Below are positions 4,611-51,703 of a stretch of DNA of 64,000 bases, in pieces. Under the pieces are notes generated by a model. The model searched no databases. It saw only the letters and a program-made list of their open reading frames with translations, and had not been told where the DNA came from. The stretch lies in the NCBI GenBank assembly GCA_037379345.1, contig CM074511.1:49978862-50042861 (forward strand), read 5' to 3'. Origin of the DNA: Perna viridis (lineage: Eukaryota). The position numbers and the translations under genes were made by a program. The first letter of the stretch is position 1. Every line of letters begins with the position of its first letter.

Positions 4611-5320
4611 ATTAATCGACAACATAATTGCCCAGTGTGGTGGACGCGTTTTTCAACAAACGGTCGGCAATCAAATGGGAACAAATTGTGCTTCTCTATT
4701 TGCTGACCTATACCTTCACTCTTAGACTGACTTTATAGCTGATCTAATCCGAAAGAAAGAATATCGTTTGGCTGTATAGATGACGTATTATCTTTAAACA
4801 ATCCTAATTTTGGGGATTTGATACATCGCATCTACCCCAAAGAACTTGAGATAAAGGATACTACAAACACTGTGAAGTCAGCCTCATATCTTGACCTACA
4901 CTTAGAGATCGATGGTAAAGGAAAACTATTGACCAAACTTTACGACAAAAGACTTTTCATTCAAAATTTTCAACTTTCATTTCATCTGTGGCAACATCCC
5001 TTCAGCTCCTGCGTATGGAGTGTTCATATCACAACTCATACGTTATGCCAGAGTTTGCCGAAATTACCCAGACTTTTTGTATCGCACTAGAATTCTGACA
5101 AATAGGCTTCTGGAACAGGGTAATGTTACAACAAGAGTGAAGTAATCAGTGGAGATGTTTTATGGTCGTCATCATGAACTCGTGGATCGTAATGTTGTAT
5201 CCATGTGCGCCATGAAAACTGATTTATTAAACGTGTCATAGTTTTCCTTTCCTCGTTTGTCTACCCTGGACCTGACTTTTTATGAGCAACTAGGCAGGTG
5301 TTTCTAGAAAAGCAGAGGAA
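4611..5320 (+). mobile_element. Penelope-like element, reverse-transcriptase core fragment
   Basis: GGRVFQQTVG..MGTNCA.LFADLYL..IDDVLSLNNPNFGDLIHRIYPKELEIKDTT..SASYLDLHLEID..LTKLYDKR..AYGVFISQLIRYAR, with frameshifts. Confidence 0.8.
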
Positions 5321-25499: not shown

Positions 25500-28400
25500 T
25501 CAGTTTTGTATCATAGTCATTTTAAATACCCATGCCCATTCACATGGCATATGATTGTAAGGTATATTAGGTATTGTGATGTATATCCCTTGTCCTCCGG
25601 GTCCTGCCGTCCATGTCAAAGAGTTAGGATAACCAAGCATGGTTACTTTAGTAGATTGTGATGGTATTGGTGATACTAGCTTCAGAACATTATTCTCTGG
25701 CCAGGCTAGTAAAATTCCAAAGACAACTATACCTTCTTCTTCGGTGTTTCTCATTGTATACCTTTATAAAAATGTAATATCTCATCGTTAAAGCCATGAC
25801 TTATACATGACAAACAGTAACTACATTAAAGTATCACGAATAATGTTGTGGAATCATAAGTGCGAACTGATACCAATGCACGAATATTTAGAAATTGTCC
25901 ATCTTGTTTACCATTGCATATTAAGCACTTAAGCATATGATTAAAAGAATTTAAAATTTGCAGTATAAAAGAAAGTTGAATAATATAGTGTTTCAAAAGA
26001 GTTGTGCTACATCTAAAAAAACAATCACATGATGCTCATTATTAAAGCCCGCTCGAACTCAAAAAAAAAACTAAAGAATAAGATTTGAGTACAATATAAA
26101 TATACCATAAATATTTTGTAGCGTTGTCGGTCTGGTGGGTCCATGGTACAGTGCTATATATACCTTCACCATTTACCCTCAGCCAGCTGCCGAACTGACG
26201 TAACCTTTCCTCAAAAACTGGTATTATTTTACCGTCTTTAGTAGGGCCTATATTCATAAGCATATTTCCACCGCAACTACAAACAGATGAAATGTGAAGA
26301 AAAAACAATAAACTTTCAAAATAGTTTGGAATTATGAATCATTTCTACTAGGACTGCTTCTAAAACGAAAAAAAAAACACGAAAAAATGAGTTATTAACC
26401 CATTATTAGTAAATGCCTATGATTTGACTGGCTAGGGACACGTTTACAAATCCATATATTAACCTGATGTTGCAAGGGCATTTATCCCGAGGTAACTGAC
26501 CATTGCCCCTGGATATAGCCCAAATTTGTAGATACCAAGTATATTCACGTCTTATGTTGACTTTTTCATGTAAGTATTTGAAAACCACGTTCAATACATT
26601 TTTCTAGCAACAAAAGAACGTATACTTCAAAATGTTCTTTTCTTGAATCAACAGTTACATAAGGTGTGATTGTTTTGTTTATACCTAATTATCCTTGTTC
26701 AAGAGTAAAGAAGTCTTAATTTACGGATATTGAATGAATGCAAATAACATATACTCTCCACTTCATTCCGTAAATATGGAATCAAAATGCATCCAAATAT
26801 CAAAAAGGAAATCGAGATAGTTACCTGCAAAGTTAGTAGTATTTATTTCAATTGTCACGCCCTTTGCGGGTCCTGGTGTCAAAAGAATAGGCCCGCAATA
26901 CCGCTTAGCTTGGCGTAAAAGGCGACTAAATAGTGCTCAGAACCCTAGCCGGGGGCTAGGGCACTCTGTCCACAGAGCAACTGGGTTGTGTGCCCCAGGT
27001 GGTATGGGGTAACCCTAGCATGTTAAATACTGGGTCGTCAGGCTACAATACAGAAAACCTGACCGCAAACCATAGTAGTGAACCGTGTCTGGAAAGATGC
27101 CACGTTCCTCGCACGTTAAAGAAGCATGCTGTAGTTTTCGCTAGGATAACCTTTGCGCTCCGCCACTGGAGGCTAAATTGCCCGACCCTACCCATCCCTC
27201 CCTATTTCTTTTGGCAATCAAAATTTGTCGACTCTATTATCCTTGTGTCCCATCCCATTTTTCGTTTCATCATCATCATTTCATGTTCATTTAATCATCC
27301 ATTTCATGTTCGTCGCCTGAATATTGGTAAATATTGCTGCTCGGGCTTAAACGCCAACGATCAATCAATCAACTGTCACAGATAAATACCTCAATACTTA
27401 TTCTTCAGATGACTATGTTAGAAAAAGTTTTTTTCTTTAAATTTTGCCTATTTTTATGTGGAGTTTAAAAGTATGTGCCAGGTTTTACTTGTATTAGACA
27501 CATGTATTTGTCGCTGTTGCAACCGACTGGACAAAATACCTGATAGTGGATGCAAATGTTGATATAATCTCATGTATACTAAGAAGCTGGTCTAGTTTGG
27601 CTGTTCTGCGGTAACCCCATGAATAAGTATCCACAGACATACAGTTCTCCCATTTAAATTTCAGGAGTTTACCTGAAATGCAATAAGGCATATACAGAGA
27701 AAAATGTGGAAAACTAGAGACGCTACAAAGAGATAACAACTATTAAAAAAGAACAACAAAAGTATTTTAACCTTCAACTACGGTGAAAACTTCCAACAAC
27801 CGGTGTCCCCTGAAAACCATGTATACCGGGTGAGGGAAATTGATATCACAAAATACACAAAAGATAAAAAAAAACAAAAATTCTAAATCAAACAAGATCA
27901 ACGAAGGCTAGCCTGTATTTTATTCAAATGTCATTCACATATACTAGATGTTAGAAGATATGACCAATTAGAATTGGAACAACAAAATACGATGATTAAG
28001 ATTGTCAAAAAATGTAACCTTCTTTAAACTGGTTGGTTACAAGTGTCTCTTTAACCTTAATCTACCCACCTGGGTTGTATTTGTCTCTACACGTTTTGTA
28101 TCCGCCATGTTTGCAGAAACATTCTTGACACCATCTATCATTAGTTACTACAGTTTCTTTCACAGGACTGTAATTATCAAAGTTAAGTTAGTCTTAAACC
28201 TTGGCATGGTTGTATGTCATATATTGGTATAACTATTATGTGTTGTAGTTTTTTAAGCGCTCACCTGATGAAGTAGGAGAAATTGCAGATATTGCAGGAC
28301 GGGAAGGCTGACTTCAAGCCAGTCAGTCGCCACTATACCCCCTAAAGACCGCGTGTTTGGTGGAGAAGCAGTTAAGACATTGTTTTAAATATTCGTGAAT

Positions 28401-30066
28401 TGGACCCAAGACTACCACCACCAAACTACCCCCCCTCCCCGCAAAAAAAAAAACGCACTCCAGGAAAACACGCTACCCTACGATCATCGAGGCGACGTAT
28501 CTTTTTGAAACATATGTTCTTTTTCATCAGCAACCAAGCTAACAAACAAACAAAGGCTTGTTTGAATACTTTTTGGTAATGGTGCAGCAACTAACAGTAT
28601 AACAGCAAGGTCAAATTCTTATATTTAAGTCACTATTTCGGTTTTGGACATAAATAACTTAAAGATGATCTACGCTAAAGAATATATATAAACCTTTCAT
28701 TGTACAACCAAGCAAGAAATTCCTTTGCTTCCCAATACTCCGCTGGTCCTGTTCCATCGGCAAGGTCTGACCAGACTATCTCTGGTTTGTATTTATTTAC
28801 AAGCTCGTAAAGCTCCGGCATTGCTTTCGCCTGAAATAAAATTAAAGATGTCATTACTAGAGATGAAAAGAAACACACATCATTGACCCTAATTTAAACA
28901 TCAGGTCGTACTCAAAGAAAGTACGTCGTTTTACAGCAGTAAAAGTCCTAAGAAGGGGAAAATAACACCCGAATTAACATTTAATTTCTATTAAAACATG
29001 CCTTATTTTACTATGATTTCGATAATTACTTACACCAATCGAATAAGGATAGAAGTCCTACCTTGACGAATTCCTGGGTTGTAAAATTTGCCCTTTTGTC
29101 TTCCAGCCACAGAGGGTGTAGCCATTCTGACAAACAATAATATGTTCCGAATTTAAGTTTTGTTTTGTTTCGAATGGCATTTGCTAAATCACCTGAAAAA
29201 AAGGAAGTAAACTCAAAACCGAAGTGAAACTTATGCAAGCAGGGAACATGTGCAATCTCGGATATGATTTTTTCTACTAGAAAGACTTTTGCTGTCAAAC
29301 ACAATGATAAATAAGACTGAACATTTGCAATAAATTTGGTGACTAGTTACCAACTAAATCTCTTTTAGGTCCAACAGCAACCGAGTTCCAATTGAATGAA
29401 TGGGATGATGGCCAATTAGGAAAGCCTTCTCCGTGTTTACTTGTCAGAACCACATACCTTAAAATATAATGAGAATAATCTGAGAGGTTATTAGAAGAAC
29501 TTCATTTTAATGTACTGCTCAAGTGATAAGGTGATGTCGTGTCGTAATATTTTTTCGTTAAACTGAAATTGAAAAAAAATGTGAACTCGTTCCCGTCTTC
29601 AAATCAAAAGAGTTTTGTGACGACACAAATCCAGGCTATTTAGTTTACAATGTAATACACAGGAATCCTGTAAGTGATAGTCAATAACTGTCTCCTTAGA
29701 ATTTAAATTAACTTACCCTGCACCAGACGCTTGCAATATATCTGCCCACTCGTCTGGGTTGAAAAACTCAGCTGTGAAATCCGGAGCAAAATCAGCATAC
29801 GTAAAATCAGGGCGATAGTTATTCTTCATGAACTGTACTATATCTTCAGAAGGGTGTTTCGACTTCCATAGAGGCCAGAACCATTCTGAGTGGAAGCTTG
29901 GTACAGAAAACACTCCCCAGTGGATAAATATTCCAAATTTGACTTCATCATACCACGAGGGTAACGGCCTAGCATCAAGCGAATCCCAATTAGGGGTATA
30001 TTTTGCGGAAACTAGACTCGTTGACACGAACGCTAATAATAAAACTGCGATTTCCCTATTCGCCAT
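25500..30066 (-). CDS. FUCA: Alpha-L-fucosidase (GH29), paralogue 1, 462 aa, variant pocket
   Basis: Exons 30066-29717, 29457-29351, 29192-29062, 28830-28694, 28167-28070, 27672-27540, 26276-26106, 25761-25500; GT-AG; 1389 nt open. Signal peptide; motifs FIHWG, SEWFW, KHGEG, WSD nucleophile, [22 protein letters not shown]. Confidence 0.95.
26859..27368 (+). mobile_element. Structured SINE-like retroposon, full-length short form
   Basis: Starts GCCCTTTGCGGGTCC and ends in a (CAAT)n tail. TSD TCAA(T/C)TGTCAC at 26848-26858 and 27369-27379. Lies in intron 6 of fucosidase 1. Confidence 0.88.
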
Positions 30067-30114
30067 ATTAAAGTCTTTGTTATTGTATAAACCGGTAGTT
30101 AGTGAAGCATTCTA

Positions 30115-30134
30115 TCACATGACAAGTCATGTGA
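30115..30134. promoter_or_regulatory. Paired M-box/CLEAR-like E-boxes upstream of fucosidase 1
   Basis: TCACATGAC-AA-GTCATGTGA, an inverted pair 49-68 nt upstream of the ATG. Confidence 0.6.
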
Positions 30135-32229
30135 ATTTTAAACATATATAACATCTAATCGATTCTTCTTAATACCTCTAATACCGGGTTTGCGGGTAGA
30201 GGCGGTCGATTTGACAGATCCTGATGGAATTCGAGTTTATTTTCTGGAACGCTATTCCACAAGATTACAAGGCTTTCCGAATGATTAACAACGCCTGGCC
30301 CGTGCTCGGTCATTTTTCGCTATGTTTTTTTTTTGCAAATTTATAATGGCAGTTTTAATTTTACCGCTGATTAGTAGACATCTTATTGAGAAGAAAGATT
30401 CCGAAATTACACTTACATATAAAGTACGCTTTTATTTATGAACAGTACAAATCAAGTTATTTATTATCGAGCACTAGTCGTTATCGAGCTGTCTATACGG
30501 AGTGAATGCTATAATTAATTCAGCTTTGTCAGCTTGACGAGGAGAAAAGTAGTAAAACCAAGGCAGGGGAAAATAAATGACAAAAAAAACTTCTTAATGA
30601 AACAGGAAATATGTACCAAAAGACTAAAAATTGAGATTCTGCCTAACTTTTCACTATTTCAAAGAGTGGCGTAGCTACTATGTAAACATCAACACATCTG
30701 TGTGCATCCTAACAAATTCGTTCTTAAAATATGATTCTCATCTTTTTTTCTGTCTTAAATACCCGTTGTTAATAACGGAGCTTTATAATGTTTCCGTATA
30801 ACTCAATTAGAAAAGACTTAAAAATAAATGAGACCGCAAGCCTCATGTTATGAAACAATTCGACCGCAGTTAGTATACATGTAAAAGTATTCCAGTTTCC
30901 TGTTAGTTTAGTTGGTTAGTTGAAACTTTTACCCTCAATTTATTTAATTCCCCATGGACATTCTTATACGGAGTGACTGCGGTTACAGTACTCGGGTTTA
31001 GTTCCCTTACAACCGATGATTTCATGATATGATATTTGTACCAGAAGAATATGTTTTTAAATTAATCAACTGAAGATCGATCCTGCTCTTTTAATAATCT
31101 CTTCAAACACACCTTAAAATGATAATTGAGAAGACTTTATGAAATCGTTGTCATTGCTTCAAGGTTTGAATACATAAAATCTACTAAAACAAAACCATGC
31201 AAAAGCAAGAGAAATCACGACAAATTATTAAATGCATATATCTTTTTTAAAAAAAAAAGAGCATGCAGACCTATCGTCTTTTCTGCTTATTTTGTTCTAG
31301 CATGAAAGATCTTCACAACGTTCTGAAATCTTTGTTAAGCAGCGAACACCCTTAATAAAATGTTAAAAAAAATGTATGCCGACCTTTTCTATCGATTCGC
31401 AGTAGTGTAGCGTGCCGTGACATACTAAATATGTGATAATAAAATTACCGATTCGATTCAAAAGGAAAATCCATATAACAAATGACAGCATCAAGGTGAA
31501 AACCGGAAAGTTGAAAACTACAACAATGGATAAATTAAATTGAGATAAATACTGTAATCTGAGTGGTTAAAATAACTTTGTTATATCTCAGTGGATAAAA
31601 AAATACTGACACGCCCCTATTCAGTTAAATACTTCGCGCAATAAACAAAACATCTGTGAAATCAATTGTAGTCAAAACAGTACAGAAAATATTATATTAA
31701 CAATGATTAAGGGAAAATAAAAAGAACTAAATACATATAAAATGCAAGTAAAACAAAGAAGATACCAACTTCAAAATAAGTCTTGAACTTTGTGAGGAAG
31801 GTGCGTCGAGATCAAGATTAAAATAATATGATGCGCGTAAAAAGTATGATTCAGAAATATAAATTTGTTGATATTATGAAAATCCATCCTCTATTATCTG
31901 TTTGTCAGAAACGGAGTATTCATAAAAAGATCTAGATATCGGAAATAAAACTTATTTAGGCAGCGTATACGATACGAATGAGGCGTATCGTGTAATAACC
32001 TTGGTCCAAAAGCCTGACTATCAGACAGCAATGGCCCATTATTTTATTACAGTATTAAGAAGAAAAAAATGTGGCATATCTGATAAATATAAACACCATA
32101 TGCAGGAGAAGCTGGTATGTCACTGCACAAGAAAAAAGAAATTTATGATTGTCTCTTTTGCCATATATATATATATACTATTGAGGGTCAATTGTTTATC
32201 TCGGAGTAAGGATAATAAGTAGGGTAACA

Positions 32230-32900
32230 TGTCTTCATGTGGACTGATTCTATGGCCTGGCGTGTCGGACAGCTATTCAAACCAGGGTATTCCATTTGAT
32301 TATATGCGTCCTCAGTTTCCTGAAAAGTGTGAATTATCTGCCACTGGCCAATAAAAGTCACTGTCAGTTGAAATTATTTTTCCGGAATATTGGAAGAATA
32401 GAAAGATTGTGGTTGAAAAAAAACCTTGGCTAAGATACTCATTTTTCAAAGAAAGTCTGCACTGACTGCATTGTTATTAGTTTGGCAATGAAAACGCTCG
32501 TGATATTTCCAATGGTAATTTGTTTTGCTTGAATAGGGTAAAATCCAGACTGCCTGCAAGAAATTAAGATCATCGTTAAATCTTTGTACTGTTAACCCCA
32601 ACAACAGGACAGTTACCATCAACTGCCGAATCCTGATCAAACTGTCACCTTTAGACTGACAATATCGTAAAACAGCCTAAAACAACATCTAAACAGAGCG
32701 ATAAAAGTTGTACCATTTTCAATGCGTCGTGTCCCTGTGGTGATGCAGAACAGGATACAATCCATATGCGACATACATGCAAGACCCACCAGGCATTGAG
32801 ACAACAGATTACCAAAATAAAATCCAGGAAAAGCAATAGCGAACAGTGGGTGCATAGCAGAAGACCAACATATTCGTAGAGGAAGGAGAAATCGAAGCAC
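32230..32900 (+). mobile_element. Heavily decayed I-group (RNase H-bearing) LINE 3' fragment
   Basis: Broken frames give HC...GNENA (RNase H-like), DSYHQL..DQTVTFRL....SLKQHLNR, and a C-terminal zinc motif CPCGDAEQDTIH....C....LRQQI. Confidence 0.55.
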
Positions 32901-33434
32901 GAAGACTGGTCAAATATTCTTAATTACACAGAGAAAATAAAGTTTGTACTAAATGATATCATGTTTTTGAAAGCCATGTATCTATGAAATGGATGCATTA
33001 TGATCATTTGCTGCGTTATTAGATATCAAAATTATTCATCTTTAGAAGTCATGTACGTGTTATATGGACTTTCCTTTCGGCTATTCCATTTGACTATCGC
33101 TAAGAATTTATCAGTTCGGGTTTTTTTTGTTGTTATTACCCTCCATAGTGATGGTTGGTGTGAGTAACACTAGCCAAGTGGCAGATTTCGACCTAAGTAC
33201 AGCAATTAAAGAGACCTCGTCTAGTTTAAACGTCTAGAAAACGGTGTTTATTGATGCATCGAATGGATGTTAACTCATTTAGATTTAAATTAAAATGTCA
33301 AGTCTAGTCACCTTTTGGCCGATAAATGTGCATTACATATGTTTAGTAAAATATACGGGTTTTCTCCATAATTTATGTCTAGCAGGCTCAACTGCATTCA
33401 CCCACCCATAACAGACGGACGGGCGCGTTGTCTG

Positions 33435-33592
33435 NNNNNNNNNNNNNNNNNNNNNNNNNNNNNNNNNNNNNNNNNNNNNNNNNNNNNNNNNNNNNNNNNN
33501 NNNNNNNNNNNNNNNNNNNNNNNNNNNNNNNNNNNNNNNNNNNNNNNNNNNNNNNNNNNNNNNNNNNNNNNNNNNNNNNNNNNNNNNNNNNN
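33435..33592. other. Assembly gap (N run)
   Basis: 158 consecutive Ns. Confidence 1.
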
Positions 33593-33599
33593 ACTAATA

Positions 33600-34330
33600 C
33601 ATATCAAACGACACCGTCCGACACAGACTCGACAGGGTAGTCAGTCCCCAGTTACACCAAACGATTAACATCAATTGATGTCATTGAAAGAGTAATCAAG
33701 GGAACCAAGATACAAGCGAAAACCAAAAGAATATATTCCAAGGATAAAGACTAGACAGGGAAAATAGGCATATGATGTAACCAAAATAACACATACAAAG
33801 AAACAATAGTAAATGGGCAACCCGGAATCCACTAAAAACTAGGAGTATGGACCTGGTACACCGGTAGGGTAAGCGTCCTCTACTTTCCAAGAAATACCTG
33901 CCGAGTTGCTCATTAAAGGTCACGTTAGTAGCAGACAAAACAGAAAAGGAACAATATGGCAAGGTGAACAAATAGGATTTCGTGGTGCAGATGGAATCAC
34001 CATAACGATCCACGAGTTCATGTTGACGACCATAAAACTTCAGAAGTGAATGATTTTAATCTTGTAGCAACTGAACCCTATTTCAAAAGCCGAATTGTAA
34101 AAAAGTCTAGCACGGTACAAAAAGTCCGCGTTGTGTCGGCAACCGCTTGCATAACTTATAAGTTGTGATATGAAAACTCCATACGCAGGTGCTGAAAAGA
34201 TGTTGATATGGATAGGAGAGTTGGCAAGGCGAAATGAGAAGTCATCGCGTTTATCTTATGGTTTGGTCACGAGTTCTCCTTTTCCATCGATCTTTAAGAT
34301 ATGATGCTGATTTCGCAGTGCCTTGTATTG
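33600..34330 (-). mobile_element. Penelope-like element 3' fragment
   Basis: Homologous to 2635-3063 and 4850-5300 (APAYGVFISQL, KFYGRQHELVDRYG). Confidence 0.75.
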
Positions 34331-35117
34331 TCTTTTATCCCAAGTTCTTTGGTGGTATAAATACGATACATAAAATCAACGTAACTTGGATTTAAAATTG
34401 GTTAAGTTTTTCACCATAGACAAGATACGAAGTGAATTTTTCAATATTACATGAAATAACAACCCTTCAATCCAAACAAACCATTGAGTAAGCTCTTGGG
34501 TTATTATGGGTACATTTATACGGTTATTTTGGCATGTGATATGAAAACTTCATATATGATATTATAGGAATTTTTATTTCGATATCTGACTTTCTGATAC
34601 TAGTACTAGAATTTCTTTCGGATTAGAAAAACGGCAAGAGTAACTACGCACAATTTTAATAAACAAAAATATAACAATGGGTCATTATTACAACAATATA
34701 CAAATGTATAATTCTCTAAAATATGCTTTTTTGTAGAAATCAACGTAAAATGAAAAAAAAAAGTGTTATTTATTCAGATGAATCCCCTTTTCCTAATTCA
34801 AAATTTGACTGTATGCATAGATGAATAATGTAAAAATATACACGTAGTTGCAATCGGACATTGTTCAGGCATAACCTTAAACACATAATATTAAACAATA
34901 AGGAATGATATAAAATATGTTGGATTTCTTTTTAGATTCATATATAAAAACACAGCTGTTTTGATGTCAAATAAGAATTATAATACCCACAAACTTGTTT
35001 AACCCATACACAAACACCCTTTATATTCAGATTTTCTGTTCATTTAAGTACGTTCTGAAATTCAATCCGATCTCAACACCAGTTTCCTGCTCTCACGTCC
35101 TTTAATCTCCTTTGTTC

Positions 35118-38100
35118 TCAGTTCTGTAATTGAGTTATTTGTAGAACCCATGCTGTAGTTGATGGTAGTTTGTTCCATGGTATATTTGACATGGTAACAT
35201 GCAGTCCTTGTCCACCTGGACCAGACACCCATTTCAATGGGTCCTCATACCCTAACATAGTCACAGTCGTACTCTGTGAAGGTATTGGTGCACCTAGCTT
35301 CAGTATCGTGTCTTCGGGCCACGTGAGGACGATAGCATATACGGTTTTACTAGACCTTGATCCCTTCATGGTGTACCTGTAAGTGACGCAGTAGATACAT
35401 GTACCAGTAAAATATGAACTTAAACAACGAAAAGAATGCAATCATTGACTTCTACTTCTTAGTACCTATATAAAAAAATCTAAGATATCAATTTTGTATT
35501 CATCGAATTCATGAGCACTTAAAATGTTATACATGTAATACATTGTACAGTAAACTCCAATTTGAGGAACCACATTCATTTTTACCATTAGTGTCTGTCT
35601 ATACAAAATCAATAGTATTTGAAGAACATTGATTTTGTGTAGAAACTAATTGAAAATTTTAAATTTGGCAAAATACTGCACATGTAAATACTGAAGCAAA
35701 ACAAATATTATCCTACCTACCATATTTTTTTGTCCTACCCTAATAATTTTATGACCATTTTGGCTCAAGTAATGTTAAATTCTAGATTATTTCCCTATTA
35801 ACCCAATGTAAAATGTTTTTGAAAATAAAAAAATGCTACCTACATACCCCATGTTTTCTTGCACGTAGCAGAAAACAATATTTTTTTGCCTAATGGCAAA
35901 TAGGATATTTTTCTACAAATTTTGAAAACACAAGAAGTTGCCATATCAAGATGCTAACTAAGCATACACTTTGGCACAATGAACTCACCATATATTTTTA
36001 ACCACCGTGTCGTTTTGATATGTCCACGGAACAGTACTATAGATCCCTTCATTGTTTATTTTTAACCAGTCCCCTAACTGTCTTAGCCTCTCTTCAAATA
36101 TTGGAACGATTTTACCATCTTTTGTTGGTCCTACATTCATCAACATGTTGCCTCCACAACTATAATAAAACGTTACAATGACAATCTCAGCGGGAAAAGG
36201 CACGTGGTAAAGGAATTCAAAGGTTCACTTTAGAGGGGTTGGTTTGGTTTTACTAAACAGAAACATAATAACATAGTAAAAAGGTAATGTATCATAAAAA
36301 CAGAAAAACTAAATTGCATTGGTAGATGAAAATTAAAATGTCACAATGAAGACGCCAAAAGATCAAATCTCATATAGTCTAATGGATATTCTAATACGAC
36401 GTACTTCAAAGCACTTTAGACTACAGCCATGGTAAAAAGTGATAAACATCTGACCAACATGGGCTATTAAAAATATGAAGAAACTAGTTCTAGTAGAATC
36501 GAAATAAATCACAGAAACTCCATTTTACCATTGTTTTACCACGGGTTGGCCATTTATATTGTTATTTACTGCCTGGGTATCGCTTGGCGTAAAACAATGC
36601 GACATAAATGGCCCGTGGTAAAACAATAAAAAAAATGGAGTTTCCGTGATTTATTTCTTAAGTTATTAGTCAAAACTAACTTTGAAAGTATATGTGACTC
36701 TTGGTCAACCATACTACCATATTGACATGCAAGACCATGTTGATCCCCAATCCTCACTATTTACCTTACTGTTGATGCCAGAGTTGTTATGATGTCGTGG
36801 ATGCTGAGAAATTCTTCTAGCCTGGCATTCCTTCTGTATCCCCAGGATGACTTATCTATAGTCATACAGTTTTCCCATTTATGGTTTTGTTTTTTGCCTG
36901 GAAGTAAATAATGCCTGTGATGTTCATTGGCCTGTGTTTTATCACATAACAAAGATAATTTTAGATGAGTTATATTTTAAGTAATTTGGTATTATAGTTT
37001 ACCTAAGCCAATCTTGTTTGGGTTAAAATTAAGGCACAAGTACGTCTGAAGATCAGTATTCAAAATGAAAACAAGTCATCTCTTTTGGAAAGATTAAATC
37101 GCCATTGCTCTATATCATAATTCGGTACCTTAACTTTAAGTACAATTTCATCAATTCCTAAACTTTTAGTACAGTGTGCGTCTCCAAATTGCGACTCAAA
37201 GAGATCCTTTATTTTTGTTCCTTCCCAAAGTTCTGGGCTAGTTACCCGTCGAACATGCCACCTCCCTCGCCCTAGTGGTTACCTGGATTATATCTATCTG
37301 TACAAGTGTAATATCCACCATGTTTACAGGCACAGCCCTTGCCCCACCGGTCGTTTGTTACCACTGTATCTTTAACTGGACTTGAAAAGAAAACACACCG
37401 AAGCATGAATTTGCTGGATTATGTGATTCGAAAAGAATCTATACCACAATTCAACGCTTTTTATATCTTCCTCTTAATTTTGTTCAATCTTGCATATTAT
37501 AATGTACAGGCTCAGAATGGCGAAAATAGTAGATATTCTATTAATTTTGTTCCTACCTTTCGTTATATAACCAAGCTAAGAATTCCTGCGAGGTCCAGTA
37601 CGTATCAGGCCCAGCGTCCCCATCTGACCAAACTATCTCTGGCTTATACTTGTTCACTATCTCATACAGTTCTGGCATTGTCTTAAACTGAAATCGATTA
37701 AAAGCCTAATTTTTTGTAGACGATGGATAAAGGAAACAGTAGCAGAAATTGCAGGCTCTTACCCCTTCCATCCCCTCGTGCCTCTCACCTTCATCTCCGC
37801 CAAACAAGAGGTGTGGTTGTTTTTTTAAGTTTCTTTCAATCGAATTATGGTAATGAATGCTTTCAGCACGGAAATCACGAAATTCTTCAAATGGGAAAAA
37901 ACAAATGCCACGTCTAAAAATTTCGTTCATAAATTTATTGGTCTTTTATATATAGTACAAGTTACAATCTTGTTAATTGCATTCTCAATTTTTAATGTTA
38001 ACATCAAAAGCTAAATAAAAAGACTAAAATCCACGTGATGACAGTTGTACGTGTAAAGCCATTCGTCTCCGATAAGGCTGTCAACCGAGTCCGACTGCAA

Positions 38101-39537
38101 ATAACCAATCATACTTTCATCCATGGACCCGTATGATATTGTTGCAGTTTAATAGATAGTCATACATTGAAAGCAATATTTAGTGTTCAGCACATATAGG
38201 CCCTACTTGTCTTAAGTATACGTAATGAAATACCTTCACAAAATCTTGAGTTGTAAAATTATTAGCCTTGTCTTTCAAGTATAGTGGGTTAAACCATTCA
38301 TACAAGGAATGATACAGACCAAAACGAATACTTGTTTTCTTCCTTATGGAATTAGCTAGTTCACCTGTAGTTAAAATTGGGACAGAAAGTTATACGTAAG
38401 GCATCGTTGATCTAAAACAATTGCATTAAAAACAACACCAAAACAAAACAAAACGACACGAAACAAACTTTCTTCATCAAGGATTAGGAAGTGTATCAGA
38501 TTTGTCCATTTGAACTTCAATGAGTAAGGATGTCATTACTGTTAGACACCCATAAAAAGTGCATTGCACATCATATGATTACATATATTTTAAAATGAAT
38601 TATAACTTGAAAATACAGCCAATTAGTACAAACAGTTTTAGTCTACTAAGTTTTCTACTACTATCAAATATTTTTCATGAAAATGTGTGGTTAATGACAG
38701 TGTACTGGTCTATTTTTAAAAGAATAAGTTGTTCTTTATTTTTTTCCATACCTACTAGATCTCTGTTTGGTCCAGATGCATTTGAATTCCAGTTAAAAGA
38801 GTACTTTGAAGGCCAGTTAGTAAAGCCTTCATGGTGTTTGCTGGTCAAAACGATATACCTGAATTACAATAACTCTGAAATTGAATCATTTCATATAGAA
38901 AAAAAAACAATATCACTCTATTTCTATAGTAAACGTGACTGGTATACTTAACATCTTATGTAACCAGGAAGTGATAATCAATCGTCAATCTGTCAAAGCA
39001 CGGTCGTACGTAATGACCAACTCGCTTGTTAAATAACTTTTGTTTGACACAAATAATAGTCTGGCGATAAACAAAATTTAGCGTTTTCATATTCCATTTA
39101 AGGCAAACAAAAAGTGATGAACCATAAATGTGATCATGCATGATGTTTGCTAAAGAGTAAACTGATAAGTTAAAGACTTACTGTGCACCTGAAGCTTGGA
39201 ATATGTCAGCCCATTCGTCAGGATTAAAAAATTCAGCTGTGAAATCTTTAGCGAAATCAGCATATGTAAAGTCTGGAGGAAAATTGTCCTTCATAAAGTC
39301 AACAGCCTGTTTACTAGGTTTTGGTCCTTTCCAATAATACCAAAACCACTCAGATATCAAACTCGGCACCGAAAACACACCCCAGTGAATAAAGATACCA
39401 AGTTTAGCCTCATCGTACCATGGTGGCAGTGGCCGAGAGTCCAGTGACTGCCAGTTTGGTTCATATTTTACAGTGTCACATGTTGTTAATCCGATTGAAA
39501 GAAACGTAAACAATGTAAATAATGCAATACTCGCCAT
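35118..39537 (-). CDS. FUCA: Alpha-L-fucosidase (GH29), paralogue 2, 461 aa, canonical pocket
   Basis: Exons 39537-39182, 38858-38752, 38364-38234, 37687-37557, 37380-37283, 36897-36765, 36159-35989, 35376-35118; 1386 nt open. Motifs [42 protein letters not shown]. Confidence 0.96.
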
Positions 39538-39547
39538 TTTTAAATAC

Positions 39548-39584
39548 TCACATGACTGAATCCTCAGGTGTACTAATCACGTGA
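39548..39584. promoter_or_regulatory. Paired M-box/CLEAR E-boxes upstream of fucosidase 2
   Basis: TCACATGAC (39548-39556) and TCACGTGA (39577-39584). Confidence 0.6.
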
Positions 39585-40278
39585 GCTTACTATTTACATT
39601 TTCTCTGAACTTAAAGCGTATATATAGATCGTTAATAATTATCAGACAGAATGAAAACACAGAACGGGACGACCAGGGGCTGGCATTTTCACGGGTTAAA
39701 AATATTTTCAATTCACGACTTTGGGTCAAGAATGCCAATATTATTTATTTCCATTTCACTGTCTGAGGTTTCTGGATATTTCAGGGTCACGGAGGTACTT
39801 TGCAGTTCGGCTAATTGCTCACACTGGTCAATGTCAGAAGATTTGTATTTTACCGCATTTCGAATGGTATAGCGGCAGTAAATGTATTATCGGTATGCAT
39901 ATAATTATAAGTATTCGGTGTTTCCAATATTTTCTGTTGTCCGAAGTTCCGTCAATATTGTAAAAAAAAATTTATATACATTTGTAATAATTTTTGATTT
40001 TGGTGAGGCCCGACACCATGTCCTTACATAGGATTGTGTATTGACGTCGGATACAGGTTTCCTAAAAAATCGGTGTTTTTCCTGGTCGGCCCTGTGTATC
40101 GGTGAGGGATAAGAGAACGAGCAAGAAATTTTTGGTATATGTATTCGAGATGAATCTGAGTATTGAATGCTGTATGTACATTTTTCCACTGCAATTAAAT
40201 GCCGCCTCCATCACATACGACGGGCTGTCGGCAAATTTACGATTTGTGTTGGTTTTTATTATGAAGTACATGTTTGCG

Positions 40279-40540
40279 CATCCTCCCCAAGTCAAGGTTT
40301 TGAGTCCACCCTCGCTCACTGAAGTATCAATGAAATCTTCATTGAAAAAACTGCTGTGTGAACAATTATAACATAATTTTTAATTTTACAGTATTATTTT
40401 CATGACTATTTTTATAATGATAATAAAATCATATCACTTCTACTATATACCTGAATGTCCTCTGGCATGTATCTAAATGCATCATAAATCTGGTCCTTGA
40501 GGGAGCGAGGTGGAACTCAAAACCCTGACTTGGGAGGATG
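40279..40540. mobile_element. MITE with about 45-bp TIRs and 9-bp TSD (Mutator-like)
   Basis: CATCCTCCCCAAGTCAAGGTTTTGAG... pairs with ...CTCAAAACCCTGACTTGGGAGGATG. Exact TSD ATGTTTGCG at 40270-40278 and 40541-40549. Confidence 0.85.
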
Positions 40541-41089
40541 ATGTTTGCGATGTATATGTACATCACTTGCATTGCGTCAATGTTAGAAGTGTGTCACTTG
40601 TTGTTCGTTGTCATGTTTAGGAGGAATATAGATAATACATATTTATTTCCTAGGAGGTGGAGCACAGGCCCATAAGACCAGAATTTTTTTATCACAAAAA
40701 ATATCACTAAATCATTTTGTTTCCATATTTGATTTATTATGCGTGTTCTCAGTCGTGTCCTCTAGTTATTTAATGTTGTTTATACTATGCCCAGTTTTTC
40801 TATCTCATTACAGCATTAAAAAGCAAGCGGATACGTCTGAGAACACACATAATTACTCAAAAATGGAAACAAAACGATTAAATATTTTTTTTAATAAAAA
40901 AAATAATTCTGGTCCCAAGGGCCTGTGAGGTGGAGGCCTGAGTATTTATTTTCATCTTTTTCGTGGCCAGACTATTTATTAAAAAATACTTTTGTGATAT
41001 ATAAGTATACATACTGTAACTATTTTAAGATGTCTCGATATTTCAGTTTTCATACATGTTTTCTGTGTGCCATTGTGAGTGGATCATGT

Positions 41090-43645
41090 CTTTATTACCT
41101 GCGTCGCCAAAAGCGGAAGCAAGTCTAGGAGTTAGGCCATACCGTCCGCCTGTCCGTCCGTAACACAATAAGATATCAGGTTGCCATCGCAACTCCTCTG
41201 AAACTACTGAACAGAAATTCCTGAAACTTGGTATGTACATGTAGTAGAGCATTGTATCACAGGGACTTTTATGTCACAGATTGGATCCATTAAATGGACA
41301 CAGATTGTACTAAAATGTTGTTTTAATGTAATAACCTTTTACATTTTATCATCCATGGCCATACGCTAAAAAAACTCGTAAACTATAGATGACTATTGTA
41401 AACAATCAAAACTGTGATTGTGTGAAAGCTGTATACTGTTGGAATCAGGACAAATAATAAGTTCTGAATATTTGTCAGAAATGGTACTTCTAATTCTTTA
41501 TAATCCATTAAACTTTCCAAAAACCCGTAAAAACGTCAAAATTCCGCATGTCAGGTGCAACACAGTGTAGGTTCAAAAAAGCTTAAGTAGTGAATTGCGC
41601 TATTGCAGAGGGTACGAAATTCGCCAAACTTTGCATGGAAGAATAATATCATATGTTCCTTTTGAGATAATTATCGAAATTGCGTTAATTTTAGGCAAAA
41701 AAATATTCAATGCAAAAATGAAAGTGTTGGTAAATGGTCAGATTTCTAAAAGTGTTCAGTAATCAAATTCTGTTATTAATGTAAGAACTTATTTACACAA
41801 TATTCTTTTCCGATTAATATTTCCTAAAAATGTACATACTTTCAGCAATTCTACGTCGACATTTGATAATATTTTCATTACAAATAAATTTTTTTGAAAA
41901 TGTCTAGGGAAATGTCAGATGTCAATATTTTCCGGGTTCGTTGAGAACATGTCATGCTCCAACGCAATTCTACAATCAATTGGCAATTTATTCTATAAAA
42001 TAATAATGCTTTGTAATTGTACATATACTTAGGAATACATATATTTCATTTTTATGGTTTAAACCGTTTAAAACGGATAAAATTCGAATAAAACAAATGT
42101 CTAGCGATTTGTCGAACTTTCACTTTTTGAACGTTTGGAGCGTTTTTCGTCGATCGGCAAATGGAACTAGACACTTATACTTGTCTCGCAATCACAAGTA
42201 TACAACATATGCAACTGAAAAAAATCGAAATCAAAGGGATATAAAAAGACTAAGAGTATCTGCATTTTGTGTTATTAACAAACGAAAGAATAAACCAAAA
42301 TAGAACAGAATAAATTCTTATAGTTTATAGGACTTCGACCGGAGTAGAATGACTGAAACGCAAAATAGTGTTGACAGAACTTTAAAAATGTATAGAAAAG
42401 CAGAATGCTAAAAGATAAAATGAATGCAGAAAAGGGAGTCATAAACATTTTTTTATTTTGGAAAACGCAAATGAGCAAATGAAAAGAAAATCGATCAACT
42501 ATCTAATGGGTGTTGATGAAAGCCCGATTTTCAGATGGATAGAAAGCTCTTTCAATCGAAATACTAAGTTGTGAAAGGTCCAAATTCTTCTATTGGTACT
42601 TGTAATATAAAATCATAAATTATATCAAAATGCACATTTTAACTTATCGCAGGAGAAAGTTATGTTCCCTCTCTAGACAGACATAGTGTGCATATATGTG
42701 GCGGTTGCATTCCACGCATTTGCAAATTTAATTTACCGGTAGTACTGATAATCAAATTAATTAATCTTTTCGTTTTTTTAAGACAATGTTCAAGATGTTT
42801 TAATTGCTATCAATAAAAAAATATTGTATATTTTGCTTTACCATACACGCGTTTCAATAAACAAACAAGCAAGAAACGAAGTGTCGACAAACGTCGAATT
42901 CTGATGTTACCGAATATGCCGCAATAACGTGTGTAACGTCATGGCGTATATTTCAGAGACAATAACTCACCTTGTGCATATTATCAGGAAATTCTGATTC
43001 TCCAATTCTTTTGGGAGTTATTCCCTTTTGAACTCAGAAATTTACCGTAAATTGTCATCACAACTCCTCTAAAACTATCCGACAGAATTTCATGAAACTT
43101 GGTGTGTTGCAAGAATACCAAATGTAGGGCATATGATCAGGAAATTTTGATTCTCCAGTTCTTATGGGTGTTATGCCCTTTTGAACTCAGAAATTTACCA
43201 TAAATCATCAGATATCAGTTGTCATCACAACTCCTCTAAAGCTACCACACAGAATTTTATAAAACTTGGTACATAGGAAGAATTAACACCATGTGTAGTT
43301 GTGTACATTATCAGGGAATTTGGATTCTCTATTTTTTATGGGAACTGTGTTCCGTATATCCGTCCCAAATACTTTATTCGTCGCATTTCCTCAGCACCTG
43401 GTCCATGCTCCCAGTTTTTAGTGGAGTCCCAGTTGCTCATTTACTTTTGTTACTTTGTATGTATGATTTTAGTTACTTTATGTTCTTTGTTGTGTATGTC
43501 TGTTTTCCATGTCTGGTCTTTGTCCCTGGATTACATTCTTTTGATTACCGCTATAACCTTGTTTACCTTGATTAGTCTTTCTCAGCAACTATAAATTACT
43601 GCTGCAGTGCGACGCAGGTCCAGACTTCGATTGGTCTAGCCTGGT
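41090..43645 (+). mobile_element. HINE-type element with nested insertions (unclassified about 41260-42720; Penelope 3' piece about 43385-43575)
   Basis: ACCTGCGTCGC sub-terminal motif, GTCC microsatellite, internal tandem repeats of roughly 140-150 nt, terminal inverted GCGACGCAGGT plus hairpin. A relative lies on - at 52195-52790. Confidence 0.65.
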
Positions 43646-44192
43646 TTTATTTTGTTCAGAACATACTGGTTCAACCGACTGATAGTAGACAGGTTTCAGG
43701 TTTTATTATTTATTTGTTAAAAATACTAAAATTAATGAGAAGGGGAACTGAATGATTGTCACAAATTTTATAATGCCTGCATGAGTACACTAAAAACCAA
43801 CAATATACACTACAGCTGTAACAAAACAATCCCATTAAAATATAAAGCAATATTAAAAAGACAAATAATGAAAATAACTGCAAAAAAATATAACATGGCA
43901 CATTTAAATAATCTAGTAGACAAACTGTCTCTGATTGTCTATCCTGTATATGTCTTTGTATCTTGTACTTCATGAAAGGATCGAAGAACAACTGCTCAAC
44001 AGAATAGAGTTAATGGCCTTTCTCAGTTATAACCTAGCGGACGCTGATACAATGTTTGCAAGCACACCAACTGATAAGAAAAGAGAGATATATGCCATTG
44101 TTTGCATATGATAATGTCAGCATCTATAACAGAAGAATAGTTTCATTGTTGTATTGAATAGTTGCAACCGTATACAAGTGATATGTCCAGGA

Positions 44193-47100
44193 TTAGTTGA
44201 GGACATCAGTAATTTTGAGTATCCATACCCACTGACATGGAAGTTTGTTCCAGGGTATTACAGGAAATGTCACATTAACTCCTTGTCCCCCTGGACCAGC
44301 AATCCAATCAAAATAATCTGGGTAGCCAAGCATACTGACGGTTGTTGATTGTGATGGAATAGGGGATCCAAGTAGGAGAAAATTATCTTCTGGCCAAGCT
44401 AGGACGAATGCATAGGCAACCTGTCCTTCCCTCGCCGTAGTCCGAGAAGTATACCTAAAAAAACACAAAGGAAACTACACAACTTTAAAGCATATATGTC
44501 AATATGTTAACTAAGTAAGATATTCACAATCAAGTTTTACTTTTTTGCCAGACACAGTCGAAATAATTTCACTTTCTACCCTTGGAAGACGCTCTTTTAT
44601 TCTGTTTCTTCGGAATTCTATTTCTTAATTGGCCCTGTCCAGAACTGATAACTTAAAAAAAAATTTCGAAAATTGAAATTGCGTCACATGTGCTATCAAT
44701 TTTAATGAAATGAAGACAATTAAAATAAAAATAAATATAGTCGACGCAGTGAAATTCTTTTCTTTACTTATAATTTTCTACTTTTCATTCAGGAAATAAC
44801 ACATGGGCACGCAATTTTAATTTTCAATACAGTTTTTTCGAATGCGACTAAGTTATTAGTATTTTGCCAATCGGGAACAGAATTATGATCAGGTGACTTG
44901 CGTTTCCATGGAAGGGCGTCTTTAAAGTCTATACCGACTGCGTCAGAAAAAGATCAAATTAAATTTTACTGCGTCAACTATCCTTTTCTTTCCAATTTCC
45001 CCTAATCTTTGCCTAACTGACCATCAATGTATATGACATCCATAGCTGAACTTTAAAAAATACTTATGTTAAATTCATTAGATCATACCAGACATTTTTA
45101 GCCAGAGTATCATTTTGATGACTCCAGGGCACGGTACTGTAAACACCCTCCCCATTAACATGTAACCAGCTACCAAACTGTCGGAGTCGCTCTTCAAATA
45201 TCGGAGTTATCCTTCCATCTTTTGTTGGGCCAACGTTTAAGGCCATGTTTCCTCCACAACTTGAATGGAAAAGTAACATGGTATAATCCAAAAGAAAATT
45301 TAGTGTAAAAATTATTGATTCGTTTGATCAAAAAGTCAAAACAAAAATCAATTTATAAGGATTAAAGATTTTAAATATCCTTAATTTGCTAGATAAACGG
45401 GTAGCAGAAAATACATGTAGACATTAGAAACAGGCCTCGCTTTGAATGTTAATGTTGTGACATCGCTGTCTATTCACATACCTATGTGCCAGTAAGAAAG
45501 AATTACCTGATAACTGAAGCAAAATGTGAGATGATTTCATGGATACTAAGGAAATCTGACAAATGGTTGTTTCTCCTATATCCCCAAGTATTCCTATCAA
45601 TCGTTAATCCTCCTTCCCATTTACGTTTCTGAAGTACGCCTTCAAAAAATTATTATAATTATAGAAAGTGGAAACGAGTGTGTTGAAGAGACAACCACCC
45701 TACCTAACATTATATAATTTTTTTCAAAGAAATATGCATCTGGGTAAATACTGTAGCTTTAGCTAATTCAAAAGCATGTATTTTCTTAATTGTTGAAAGG
45801 CCTTACCTATATTATAGGGTGATAACAAGAAGACAAAGGTTTTGAAAAATAGCTTGAACACGTGTGTTAAATTTTTTATCTGCAGTCACTCCCTATACCT
45901 GGGTTAAATCTGTCGGTACATGTTAGGTAGCCTCCATGTTTACACAGGCATTCCCTCCCACACCATCTGTCGTTCACAACTATTGTGTCTTTAACTGGAC
46001 TGGAACATATATAGTAAGTGATTCTGGTTAGTATAACTATACTATAAAGTCGCCAAGATGTATTATTGCTTTCTTTTCTTTTTTGAATCATGAAAACAGC
46101 TTAATTCCCTCGATCGAGAGGAATAACGAAATTTTTAATTGAATAAATATTCATTTTTAGATAAAGGTCACTATTTCTATTGGTGAAACTTTGTAAACCA
46201 TGTACCATACTTGTCATTGTAAAACTGAGCCAGAAACTTAGACAATGCACCATACCTGTCATTGTAAAGCCAGGCCAGAAACTCTGTGGAATTGAAGTAG
46301 TTAACGTCTCCGTTAAATTCACATATATCCGACCATAAAAGTTCTGGTTTATAATTATTTATCAGCTCGTGCAATGCCGGAGTAATTTTGTACTAAAAAA
46401 AACGATTAAAAACAGTGGTTGGTAAAAGTCAATTGATGCAAAATATATCAAGAAACACTGCGCGGAAATCCAAGGGAGTTTGAATACAATGTATAAGGTC
46501 CGGACCCATTTAAAACAACTATTTTCCATGCACTTCATGCGCCAAGTATAGTTTTCAAGTAACTCTTGCTATTGTTATGTGATATATGCATTAGTTAAAG
46601 AACATGTGGAATCATAATTACAATAATTTAGTGACGACTTATGGAAAAATGAAAGAACCTCTTAGAAATAAGAGAATCCTCGATTTATCACACACGAAAC
46701 AAGAAACAAGATACCTACTTTGACATAATCATTCGTAGTAAAGTTATTTCTTTTATCATTGAGATATAATGGGTTATACCACTCATGCAAACAATGATAA
46801 AGACCGACTTTAACCGAACTCTTCTTCCTCAAGGCTGCTGCAAATTCTCCTATTTAAAAAAAAGTACAATACAATATAGGCAACATTTCTCAATAGCGTG
46901 CGTACATGGCGTTGGTAAACTCAGTCTAACTAAAATTGAAGACTTGTTCGCTTAACTTTAAAAATTATCACTAACTCATGACTTTATAAAATCTCAGAGA
47001 ATCCATTGATCAAGACCGCAACCAACGCAGTTTGATTTTGTTCTGCTGATTTTCTTTTATCTTAACGGGCGCTTTTGGGAGTTTGATTTTACTGAGATAA

Positions 47101-48422
47101 TCAATCGATAACCATTAGAGTTATCGATGTTCAGTTTGATCGATAAGTTATGTCATGTGGGGAGTAACATATGACAGTGATTAAAGATGTGTTTTTAATA
47201 AGAAAGTGTTTTACTATAAATAAATTATACATTTTCCAGCATCTGTTCAGGTAAAACGATTCAGTGAAAAGAAAGCGTTATTTATTTTATTGAAACTTAT
47301 TTCATGCCAATAAGAAAAATATATCAGACCATCAATATGAAATTAATTTTGTTTTTGAAAGCCGATGCAATGAATATTAATGCAAAGGAGGCAAATGATT
47401 TCAGAGACATAAAATCTCCGTGAATCAATTCACTGATATACATACCGACAAGATCCCTACCAGGACCCGTGGCATTGGAGTTCCAATTAAAAGCAGTCAT
47501 TGATGGCCACATTGTATATCCATCGCAGTGTTTTGTTACAAATATGGTATATCTAGAAAGCATAGTGATACTATCTTGAGAGGCATAAGTTATAGGTTAC
47601 ACTAATAGAGGTTAGTAAATATATAATAAAGTTTAAAAAAAGGCTGCAGATGTTCATCCCATCTGGGCACCTAGTCCGAAGTCAGTCATTAAAGCAATAA
47701 AGCTATGCTCCTTCACTTTTAATTTCCGTGCGTTAATTTTCGGTTGTGTTCTGTATAAGCACATGGTGACAGTTACTTGATAAATGAGCATCACTGTTAT
47801 TCAACGTGTGACAGACTGTGGCCTTCGTGGTGGAAGTCGTAAATGTGTAAAAACACAGTCATAATTGATTTATAACATAGCTTTTAAAAAATACACATTT
47901 AAAAAAATAGTATATGGGCTGTGATGCATGACGCGTCTGACTATTTACTATTTATAACACACATTGATTTATTTTAAAAGAGTAAACAATGAATAAATTT
48001 GATCCATTAATGTACATATTATTATTCATAAATTCTAAATGAGTAAACAAAAGCAGCACATATATTTTCAGTTACCTTGCACCAGAGGCCTGAAATATTT
48101 CTGCCCATTCTTCTGGATTAAACAACTCAGCAGTGAACTCTGATGCAAAATCAGGATAGGTGTAATCTGGTCTGTACATATCCTTCATGTATTTGACAAC
48201 TTCGGGTGTTTTCCAGTGGCGCCAGTTATACCAAAACCATTCATTGTCTACTGCTGGCACTGACCAAAGACCCCATGTTATGAAGATTCCAAATTTACTT
48301 TCATCGTACCAGGATGGTAATGGTCTTGAGTCTAATGAGTTCCAATTAGGTTGATATCTGATTCCAGTGGTTAAAGATCTAGATGTGACAACAATAATGC
48401 ATAGGAATAATTTTCCCATCAT
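44193..48422 (-). CDS. FUCA: Alpha-L-fucosidase-like (GH29), paralogue 3, 462 aa, most divergent pocket
   Basis: Exons 48422-48076, 47552-47446, 46849-46719, 46392-46256, 45999-45899, 45639-45507, 45259-45089, 44454-44193; 1389 nt open. Motifs [43 protein letters not shown]. Confidence 0.94.
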
Positions 48423-48454
48423 TTTCAGTATCAGAGGAAGTACGGTTTTGTCAT

Positions 48455-48484
48455 GTCATGTGATTCGACAAAACTGTCATGTGA
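48455..48484. promoter_or_regulatory. Paired M-box E-boxes upstream of fucosidase 3
   Basis: GTCATGTGA at 48455-48463 and 48476-48484. Confidence 0.6.
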
Positions 48485-51048: not shown

Positions 51049-51484
51049 GGCTACAGACCACTAACATCACTTTCCAAAGACTCCAATTTTTATTTCATTA
51101 AGTTCAATAAGTTAATGAGCTTGTACCTGAAGTTTTAGCCTGGGGGAGAACATATATCACCGAAATGCTGCTTGCATACACTTATAGCTAGGAAATTTTT
51201 ATTAATAGTTTGCAAGTGCAAACACCAGTTACAAAAATTAAATAAGCTAAACGTTGAACAGGAATTCCCCCCATCATACAGAACTCATAAAACATAAATT
51301 CATAGTTAAAGTGACCATTTTATATAAAAAAAAGAATATGATTCTTTGCAAAAAAGAGGCTCATTTTTGTAGATTTGATGTGCACTTTTTCCTCATTGAC
51401 ATATCACATGAACAATAAAATTTGTGTAGGACTATTTTTGCATAATTCTAAAATCCCATTGGTTGAATTAATGGTGTGTAACCT
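51049..51484. mobile_element. Diverged member of the TTAA-type MITE family
   Basis: Termini GGCTACAGACCACTAA... and ...ATTGGTTGAATTAATGGTGTGTAACC resemble 58635-59101. Confidence 0.6.
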
Positions 51485-51703
51485 AAGCTCTGATCAAAGC
51501 CAGAAAAAGTCAATTCAATTGAACCATGTGACTAATATATATTGAACATTTTTCAGGGTGTTAATACCTTGACTACCGTACTACATGGTCCCATCCAGAA
51601 AGTAAAAACACTACCCTATAACAGAAATCATCTTTTCAGTCTGGATTTCATTATTGTACCAAGTCATATGGAATTCTTCTTGTGTAATACTTTCACTGTC
51701 TCA

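Follow-up and report, generated by a model that had tools for sequence, protein, structure and literature searches.

Can a fucosidase lose the histidine that contacts O2 of its sugar and remain an enzyme, and if so, for which substrate? The question is raised by a window of 64,000 nucleotides from the mussel Perna viridis (contig CM074511.1), an AT-rich eukaryotic stretch in which four genes of glycoside hydrolase family 29 (GH29), of the FUCA1 type, are arranged in tandem on the minus strand. P2 and P4 are canonical, while P1 and P3 have lost this histidine (Table 1). The reading tentatively preferred here, with confidence just short of even, is that P1 and P3 would be retaining hydrolases for fucosides carrying a small non-polar group on O2, most likely 2-O-methyl-L-fucose. 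That they cut a modified sugar is likely because the loss is old, expressed and independently repeated in other animals.

Residue positions follow the Thermotoga maritima GH29 enzyme (TmFuc), and published sources are cited by PMC accession for the excerpts consulted. The sugar is contacted by His34 at O4, His128 at O4 and O3, His129 at O2, Trp67 at O2 and O3 and Glu66 at O3 (PMC11796335 Table 10). A preliminary description of the locus, made from its letters, had assigned His34 and His128 to O4 and His129 to O2, in agreement with this source, and the motifs it quoted are all present in the genes to which it gave them: HWG, KHHEG, YHS, WSDGD and RWG in P2 and P4; HWG, KHGEG, YYC, WSDLA and RWC in P1; TWG, KHCDG, YHC, WSDIC and RWC in P3. 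The remodelled fucose pocket that it proposed is likewise there. Position 129 is Gly in P1 and Cys in P3, and position 34 is Thr in P3, leaving the His34/His128/His129 triad of the canonical alpha-L-fucosidase (EC 3.2.1.51) without His129 in P1 and without His34 and His129 in P3. A further change, Gly at the O6-contact position of P3, was absent from that description. The variant codons GGA, TGC and ACA are each at least two bases away from any His codon and the same residues are present in orthologues from other mussels, so they reflect neither chance nor sequencing error.

Both proteins keep the nucleophile, the acid/base Asp and Arg254, together with Phe32, Glu66, Trp67, His128, Tyr171, Trp222 and the Trp at position 290; the conserved arginine is R253 in P1 and R252 in P3. 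GH29 enzymes hydrolyse with retention, and as the catalytic pair is kept, retaining hydrolysis is expected of P1 and P3. The earlier statement that catalytic residues are conserved stands for the nucleophile, the Arg and the acid/base Asp; the KWE Glu, which it also listed, is structural in the human enzyme (Glu289), where the acid/base is Asp276 (PMC9548408).

By sequence and fold P1 and P3 are GH29 proteins with a non-canonical sugar pocket. Profile searches with the close relatives P0200 and P0004 find PF01120 and PF16757 (E 2.9e-122 and 1.5e-111), exon 1 of P1 matches 7PLS (3e-36), and the predicted structure of P0200 (89% to P1) is a modified TIM barrel plus beta-sandwich at a predicted local distance difference test (pLDDT) score of 76.8, with 7PLS as its top match. 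The model thus has the predicted two-domain fold of human FucA1 (template modelling score, TM, 0.86; 51% identity). P1 and P3 share with the human enzyme the equivalents of its nucleophile, Asp acid/base, Arg, His133, Glu70, Trp71, Tyr177, Trp223 and Trp299. They differ from it in that His134 is replaced by Gly (P1) or Cys (P3) and His58 by Thr (P3), while in both the serine of YHS has become Cys, the loop after the nucleophile is longer and there is additional loop Cys.

Two other candidate pocket changes were rejected. RWC, counted among them in the preliminary description, is accompanied by two further Cys within seven residues in 53/53 RWC rows as against 66/272 RWG rows, and is also seen in His-His enzymes; its cysteine is likely to form a loop disulfide. 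The second Tyr of YYC is set aside as well, YYS being found in His-His enzymes.

Could P1 and P3 be decaying duplicates under neutral evolution? Tandem duplicates commonly decay, but this explanation can practically be dismissed. Each of the four genes has eight exons, GT-AG introns and no internal stops, and their frames remain open despite saturated synonymous sites (proportion of synonymous differences, pS, 0.73-0.80; nonsynonymous divergence, dN, 0.23-0.34) at pairwise protein identities of 57-68%. Saturated pS with low dN points to ancient duplications and to proteins under constraint. The P1-type gene shows 96.3% identity between Mytilus galloprovincialis and M. californianus, on a par with canonical genes at 94.6% and 95.0%; other variant genes stand at 97.8% and 92.8%, and one pair, perhaps not orthologous, at 89.8%.

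P1 and P3 are also expressed. Part of the P3 stretch is contained in 20 runs from six studies, none recorded as RNA, and contigs of four of these runs were compared with positions 28550-48549, a stretch beyond which P1 exons 5-8 lie. Contigs from three of the four runs skip introns exactly, among the joins listed at 7/7 in P3, 7/7 in P2 and at intron 3 of P1, which indicates mature mRNA. The fourth run (X21) does not cover the genes, which is not evidence of silence, and contig depth cannot rank the genes by expression. Spliced contigs and interspecies identity largely refute decay; the earlier view that these intact open reading frames are maintained holds, and the unexpressed, neutrally evolving genes that would have spoken against it are not what is found.

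The changes belong to a lineage. In a 37-row tree, from which the trait columns had been removed beforehand, P1, P3 and 11 relatives form one mussel-family clade (99/97) that lacks His129 in 13/13 members and has P2 among its closest canonical relatives. M. edulis carries a comparable array on one 2.37 Mb contig, made up, by accession order, of a P1 orthologue, a P2 orthologue, more His129-loss copies and P4 relatives. P3 is nearest to P0004 and P0008 (86% and 75%), the nearest named relative, a Mytilus gene, being at 63%. A conservation scan covered P4 residues 20-359 and considered those columns whose conservation among 215 canonical rows is 85% or more. Eight of them drop to half or below in the 13-row clade and only three shift clade-wide, at positions 129 (13/13), 173 (12/13) and 256 (12/13). 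Directly following the nucleophile, Leu, Ile, Met or Thr occurs in 13/13 clade rows, and Gly in 211/215 canonical ones.

The same scan bears on whether P1 and P3 release 2-O-sulfated fucose from fucoidan-type food, a substrate offered in the preliminary description. Space at O2 would accommodate it and several Cys129 copies occur in abalone, which are algal grazers, but the cationic His is lost and no column of the catalytic domain gains Lys or Arg across the 13-row clade; what is gained is Gly, Cys, Leu, Ile and acidic loop residues. Sulfated fucose is accordingly very unlikely, and a methyl group fits the O2 cavity better than a sulfate. A second suggestion from the same source, that these are low-activity lectin-like sugar binders, has altered sugar contacts in its favour, but such proteins are expected to lose catalysis and keep their binding residues, and the reverse is seen. 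Among 336 full-length rows, a redundant set containing isoforms and cluster members, 82 have Gly, Cys or Ala at 129, and all 82 keep His128, Tyr171, Trp222, Asp224, Arg254 and the acid/base Asp, so that a lectin is hardly to be expected. In these rows position 173 is Cys, Val or Ala in 68/82, compared with 0/215 canonical rows.

Has His129 been lost elsewhere? With 150 representatives of 50% clusters added, 460 domains spanning the core and both sites were dereplicated to 312; the search queries derived from variant sequences, so the counts are not family-wide frequencies. With Thr173 scored as unchanged, 129 and 173 are both changed in 27 domains, 129 only in 8, 173 only in 1 and neither in 276. 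Across 15 independent pairs 173 changes in the same direction 9.3 times and in the opposite direction 0.0 times (median p 0.004). About 17 separate groups have lost His129; 14 of them retain His128, and 11 of these 14 use Gly, Cys, Ala or Val, each at least two base changes from His, with Ser173 also changed in 8 of the 11. Among the named carriers are four abalone species, Cylicocyclus, Plectus, Toxocara (doubtful), the sponge Sycon, the cockroach Diploptera and oysters. Among 97 bacterial domains at 79 loci, 94 have His129 (Ser173 in 90, a gap in 2, another residue in 2) and three have Gly129, with Cys173 in all three.

Several of these copies show peculiarities of their own. GH29 genes occur as a tandem pair in an Armatimonadota bacterium (L002:2924-5917), each encoding Gly129 and Cys173; open reading frame starts around the bacterial Gly129 enzymes (L001, L002) gave no clue to a substrate, no family scan having been made. 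Haliotis (P0248, P0344-P0346, P0362-P0364) has several Cys129/Val173 copies and three more on one H. asinina contig, with Val replacing the KWE Glu. A conserved oyster clade (P0373, P0539-P0543) has Thr34, Gln128, Pro129 and Cys173; all three histidines are gone and the catalytic Asp residues are retained.

The same site also varies within one gene. In M. galloprovincialis, M. edulis, M. trossulus and M. californianus, another Mytilus gene is annotated with pairs of isoforms only 3-4 residues apart; every difference falls in the exon-2 span, and one of them is His or Cys at position 129. Both exon-2 copies stand one after the other in two gene models (P0143, P0136); the gene has Ser173 and Thr34. 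As the evidence consists of protein sequences, it points only by inference to mutually exclusive splicing of the duplicated exon, which is likely to be a splice-controlled active-site switch. Within the window no fucosidase exon was found beyond the 32 of P1-P4 (0/128 tblastn hits elsewhere), and the Mytilus exon switch is therefore absent from P1-P4. The recurrence of the loss, its mostly Gly, Cys, Ala or Val outcome, its coupling to Ser173 and the His/Cys isoforms together argue for a selected change rather than decay.

These observations also weigh on the simplest alternative, in which P1 and P3 still cleave plain fucose, with altered kinetics, pH profile or preference for linkage or aglycone, and Ser173 to Cys is released constraint. 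Both retain His128, Glu66 and Trp67, the last also an O2 contact; the loop that follows the nucleophile and lies at the entrance to the pocket has been rebuilt (TmFuc Met225 position, PMC9774334); and His34-substituted ClAgl29 enzymes weakly cleave para-nitrophenyl (pNP) fucoside (PMC9774334). Left unexplained are the choice of small non-polar residues, at least two base changes away, by 11 of 14 origins and the His and Cys exon copies of one gene in four species. On balance this alternative is rather unlikely.

Do P1 and P3 act on a different sugar altogether? P1 might cleave 2-acetamido-L-fucose or 6-deoxy-L-talose, and P3 L-rhamnose or L-quinovose(amine). Rhamnose and fucose differ at C2 and C4, and in P3 the contacts to both O2 and O4 have changed. 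His34 replacement marks GH29 alpha-L-glucosidases and quinovosidases (PMC9774334, PMC11368710); P3 shares it with ClAgl29A/B (PDB 7XSF-7XSH), where it flagged a new specificity, unlike P1, whose residue at 34 is still His. PMC4693232 cites a rhamnosidase from gastropod liver, and PMC8857213 describes diatom polysaccharide as rich in rhamnose. However, ClAgl29A/B keep the O2 His and needed Glu66 to Asp, Thr125 to Phe and a shifted aromatic, Phe290, for an equatorial O4, whereas P3 lacks the O2 His and has Glu61, Val121 and Trp at these sites. On pNP-rhamnoside, moreover, ClAgl29 reaches 1/860 to 1/1200 of its activity on quinovoside (PMC11368710), and no coupling between His34 and His129 is detected (14 pairs, p = 1). 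His34 replacement arises repeatedly, independent of His129 loss; Asn or Thr at 34 with His129 kept is seen in the P0050 cluster (oysters, Pinctada), P0203 (Mytilus) and P0026 (Batillaria). Another sugar is thus quite improbable, and a rhamnosidase P3 is a minor rival. Non-fucose preference in GH29 can also be set by one pocket residue, as in the exo-alpha-L-galactosidase BpGH29 (PDB 7LJJ/7LK7), where Asp327 serves O6 (PMC9774334) and the His34 position is His; at the O6 site P1 has Cys285 and P3 Gly285.

The 2-O-methyl-fucose idea, first raised in the preliminary description, appears to fit these sequences best. In this reading Ser173 would normally hydrogen-bond His129, and with Gly or Cys plus Cys in place of the pair a small non-polar cavity would open at O2, while the Asp nucleophile and Asp acid/base would still carry out double-displacement hydrolysis. 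The N-termini of P1-P4 are hydrophobic and signal-peptide-like, as judged from hydropathy, and would direct these proteins into lysosomes or the gut lumen, where they would break down methylated glycans of the diet or of the animal itself. His34 to Thr in P3 would be a later, separate change giving more room at O4, for 4-O- or 2,4-di-O-methyl fucose; such room is more likely than a C4 epimer because Asp66 and Phe125 are missing and the Trp presumed to exclude an equatorial O4 is kept. The switch residues of GH27 line the 2-position of the sugar. That family offers a duplicated pair of lysosomal retaining enzymes, alpha-galactosidase A together with alpha-N-acetylgalactosaminidase, set apart by two pocket residues, large versus small (PMC5478728, citing Tomasic 2010); it differs from P1 and P3 in family, in sugar and in admitting an N-acetyl group, and is an analogy only.

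Cleavage of 2-O-methyl-fucose is ascribed only to GH139 and not to GH29 (PMC12282258). The GH139 2-O-methyl-alpha-L-fucosidase BT0984, which has the activity proposed here, holds the O2 methyl in a shallow non-polar pocket (PMC12282258), but its family is bacterial, unrelated and proposed to work by inversion. All sequence and fold matches among those listed are GH29, and the likeness to GH139 is one of proposed function alone. Exoglycosidases acting on invertebrate glycans are normally blocked by methylation (PMC6935376). Toxocara and Caenorhabditis elegans are documented sources of 2-O-methylfucose (PMC6272458, PMC7614267), and nematodes, which make it, also carry His129-loss copies. A broader proposal, possible but held with more reserve, is that His129 and Ser173 could constitute a reusable GH29 switch from fucosidase to retaining 2-O-methyl-fucosidase, flipped independently in mussels, abalone, nematodes, a sponge, a cockroach and some bacteria, and in one Mytilus gene by alternative splicing.

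Several observations weigh against a 2-O-methyl-fucosidase. In the P0200 model the acid/base loop has pLDDT below 50. The His129-Ser173 contact is suggested by covariation, and loss of His could simply free Ser. Ser or Thr is retained at 173 in 8/35 dereplicated His129-loss rows, among them P0004, the closest to P3. Position 66 is Ser or Ala in 17/82 of the Gly/Cys/Ala129 rows, and Glu66 loss in some clade members suggests several substrates or a loosened function. For the Toxocara Val129 model there is a twin with His129 that matches it exactly past residue 124 save for three residues at the aligned end: P0388, P0533 and P0534 of T. canis share one C-terminal part but show two forms of the first 124 residues, of which one carries Val129. 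These forms may represent alternative 5' exons or a mis-joined model, and because of the latter possibility the Val129 model is treated as weak. Finally, the excerpted mollusc glycan review records 4-O-methylated glycans with branched fucose in Mytilus and methylated hexoses in molluscs, and no mention of methyl-fucose was found in it (PMC8699351), so the mollusc 2-O-methyl fucose invoked in the preliminary description is not borne out there; nor was 2-O-methylfucose in mussels reported in the literature found. With only 4-O-methylated glycans found there for mussels, the substrate may be dietary or something else.

Features of the locus are collected in Table 1. CpG counts per 2 kb are 6-22 over positions 50001-60000, in the P4 gene body, compared with 29-67 over P1-P3. 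Low CpG in mollusc gene bodies suggests gene-body methylation and a housekeeping gene, and on that view P4 may serve constitutively, with P1-P3 as specialised enzymes. The other features include a fibrinogen C-domain (FReD) gene tail to tail with P1, an interspersed repeat that is present, for example, within intron 6 of P1 and intron 1 of P4, an intergenic gap and high-copy repeat fragments.

Table 1. Coordinates of the genes, residues and other features (positions in the 64,000-nucleotide window)
Feature	Position	Strand	Remarks
P1, GH29, 462 aa, His129 to Gly type	30066-25500	-	89% to P0200, 74-76% to Mytilus orthologues
P1 exons	30066-29717, 29457-29351, 29192-29062, 28830-28694, 28167-28070, 27672-27540, 26276-26106, 25761-25500	-	
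P1 Gly126 (GGA)	29430..29432	-	His129 (O2-contact) position
P1 Cys172	29134..29136	-	Ser173 position
P1 nucleophile Asp218	28765..28767	-	human Asp225 equivalent (PMC9548408)
P1 acid/base Asp270	28083..28085	-	human Asp276 equivalent (PMC9548408)
P2, canonical GH29, 461 aa, 8 exons	39537-35118	-	
P3, GH29, 462 aa, His34 to Thr and His129 to Cys type	48422-44193	-	86% to P0004, 75% to P0008
P3 exons	48422-48076, 47552-47446, 46849-46719, 46392-46256, 45999-45899, 45639-45507, 45259-45089, 44454-44193	-	
P3 Thr49 (ACA)	48276..48278	-	His34 (O4-contact) position
P3 Cys125 (TGC)	47525..47527	-	His129 position
P3 Cys171	46791..46793	-	Ser173 position
P3 nucleophile Asp217	46327..46329	-	
P3 acid/base Asp270	45912..45914	-	
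P3 Gly285 (KWEGGL)	45608..45610	-	O6-contact position (TmFuc Thr283, BpGH29 Asp327; PMC9774334)
P4, canonical GH29, 456 aa, 8 exons	60732-51704	-	CpG-poor gene body; outside 25500..48422
Mytilus isoform pairs P0012/P0141, P0149/P0148, P0138/P0011, P0139/P0144			not in window
FReD gene	~22300-24749	+	2 exons match PF00147
Interspersed repeat, 430-500 bp	1-427, 26859-27372, 59747-60168, 61310-62198		copies 73-87% alike
N gap, 158 bases	33435-33592		intergenic
High-copy repeat fragments	33876-34377 and 4815-5319; 43394-43650		
Frame resembling a retroelement remnant	4743-5087		judged by eye

How new would such an enzyme be? No characterised GH29 enzyme without His129 and no report of the mussel fucosidase expansion or of the P1-P3 clade was found in the literature covered, which includes a GH29 survey in excerpt (PMC11189522) and only thinly subscription journals; clade members are annotated merely as fucosidases. 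The excerpted literature consulted on methylated glycans names no animal enzyme that removes a methylated residue. If the 2-O-methyl-fucose reading is true, P1 and P3 would be the first enzymes for methylated fucose from an animal, and likewise the first from any family but GH139: a new activity for a well-studied family and a glycomics reagent that could possibly replace hydrofluoric acid for methyl-fucose. Comparison pairs are at hand in P1 or P3 versus P2 and in the Mytilus isoforms 3-4 residues apart. Even a negative finding on methyl-fucose would define the role of a repeatedly evolved, mis-annotated subfamily. If the 2-O-methyl-fucose reading is true, it would account for the recycling or digestion of methylated fucose glycans by invertebrates and would bear on the use of algal and bacterial glycans by filter feeders.

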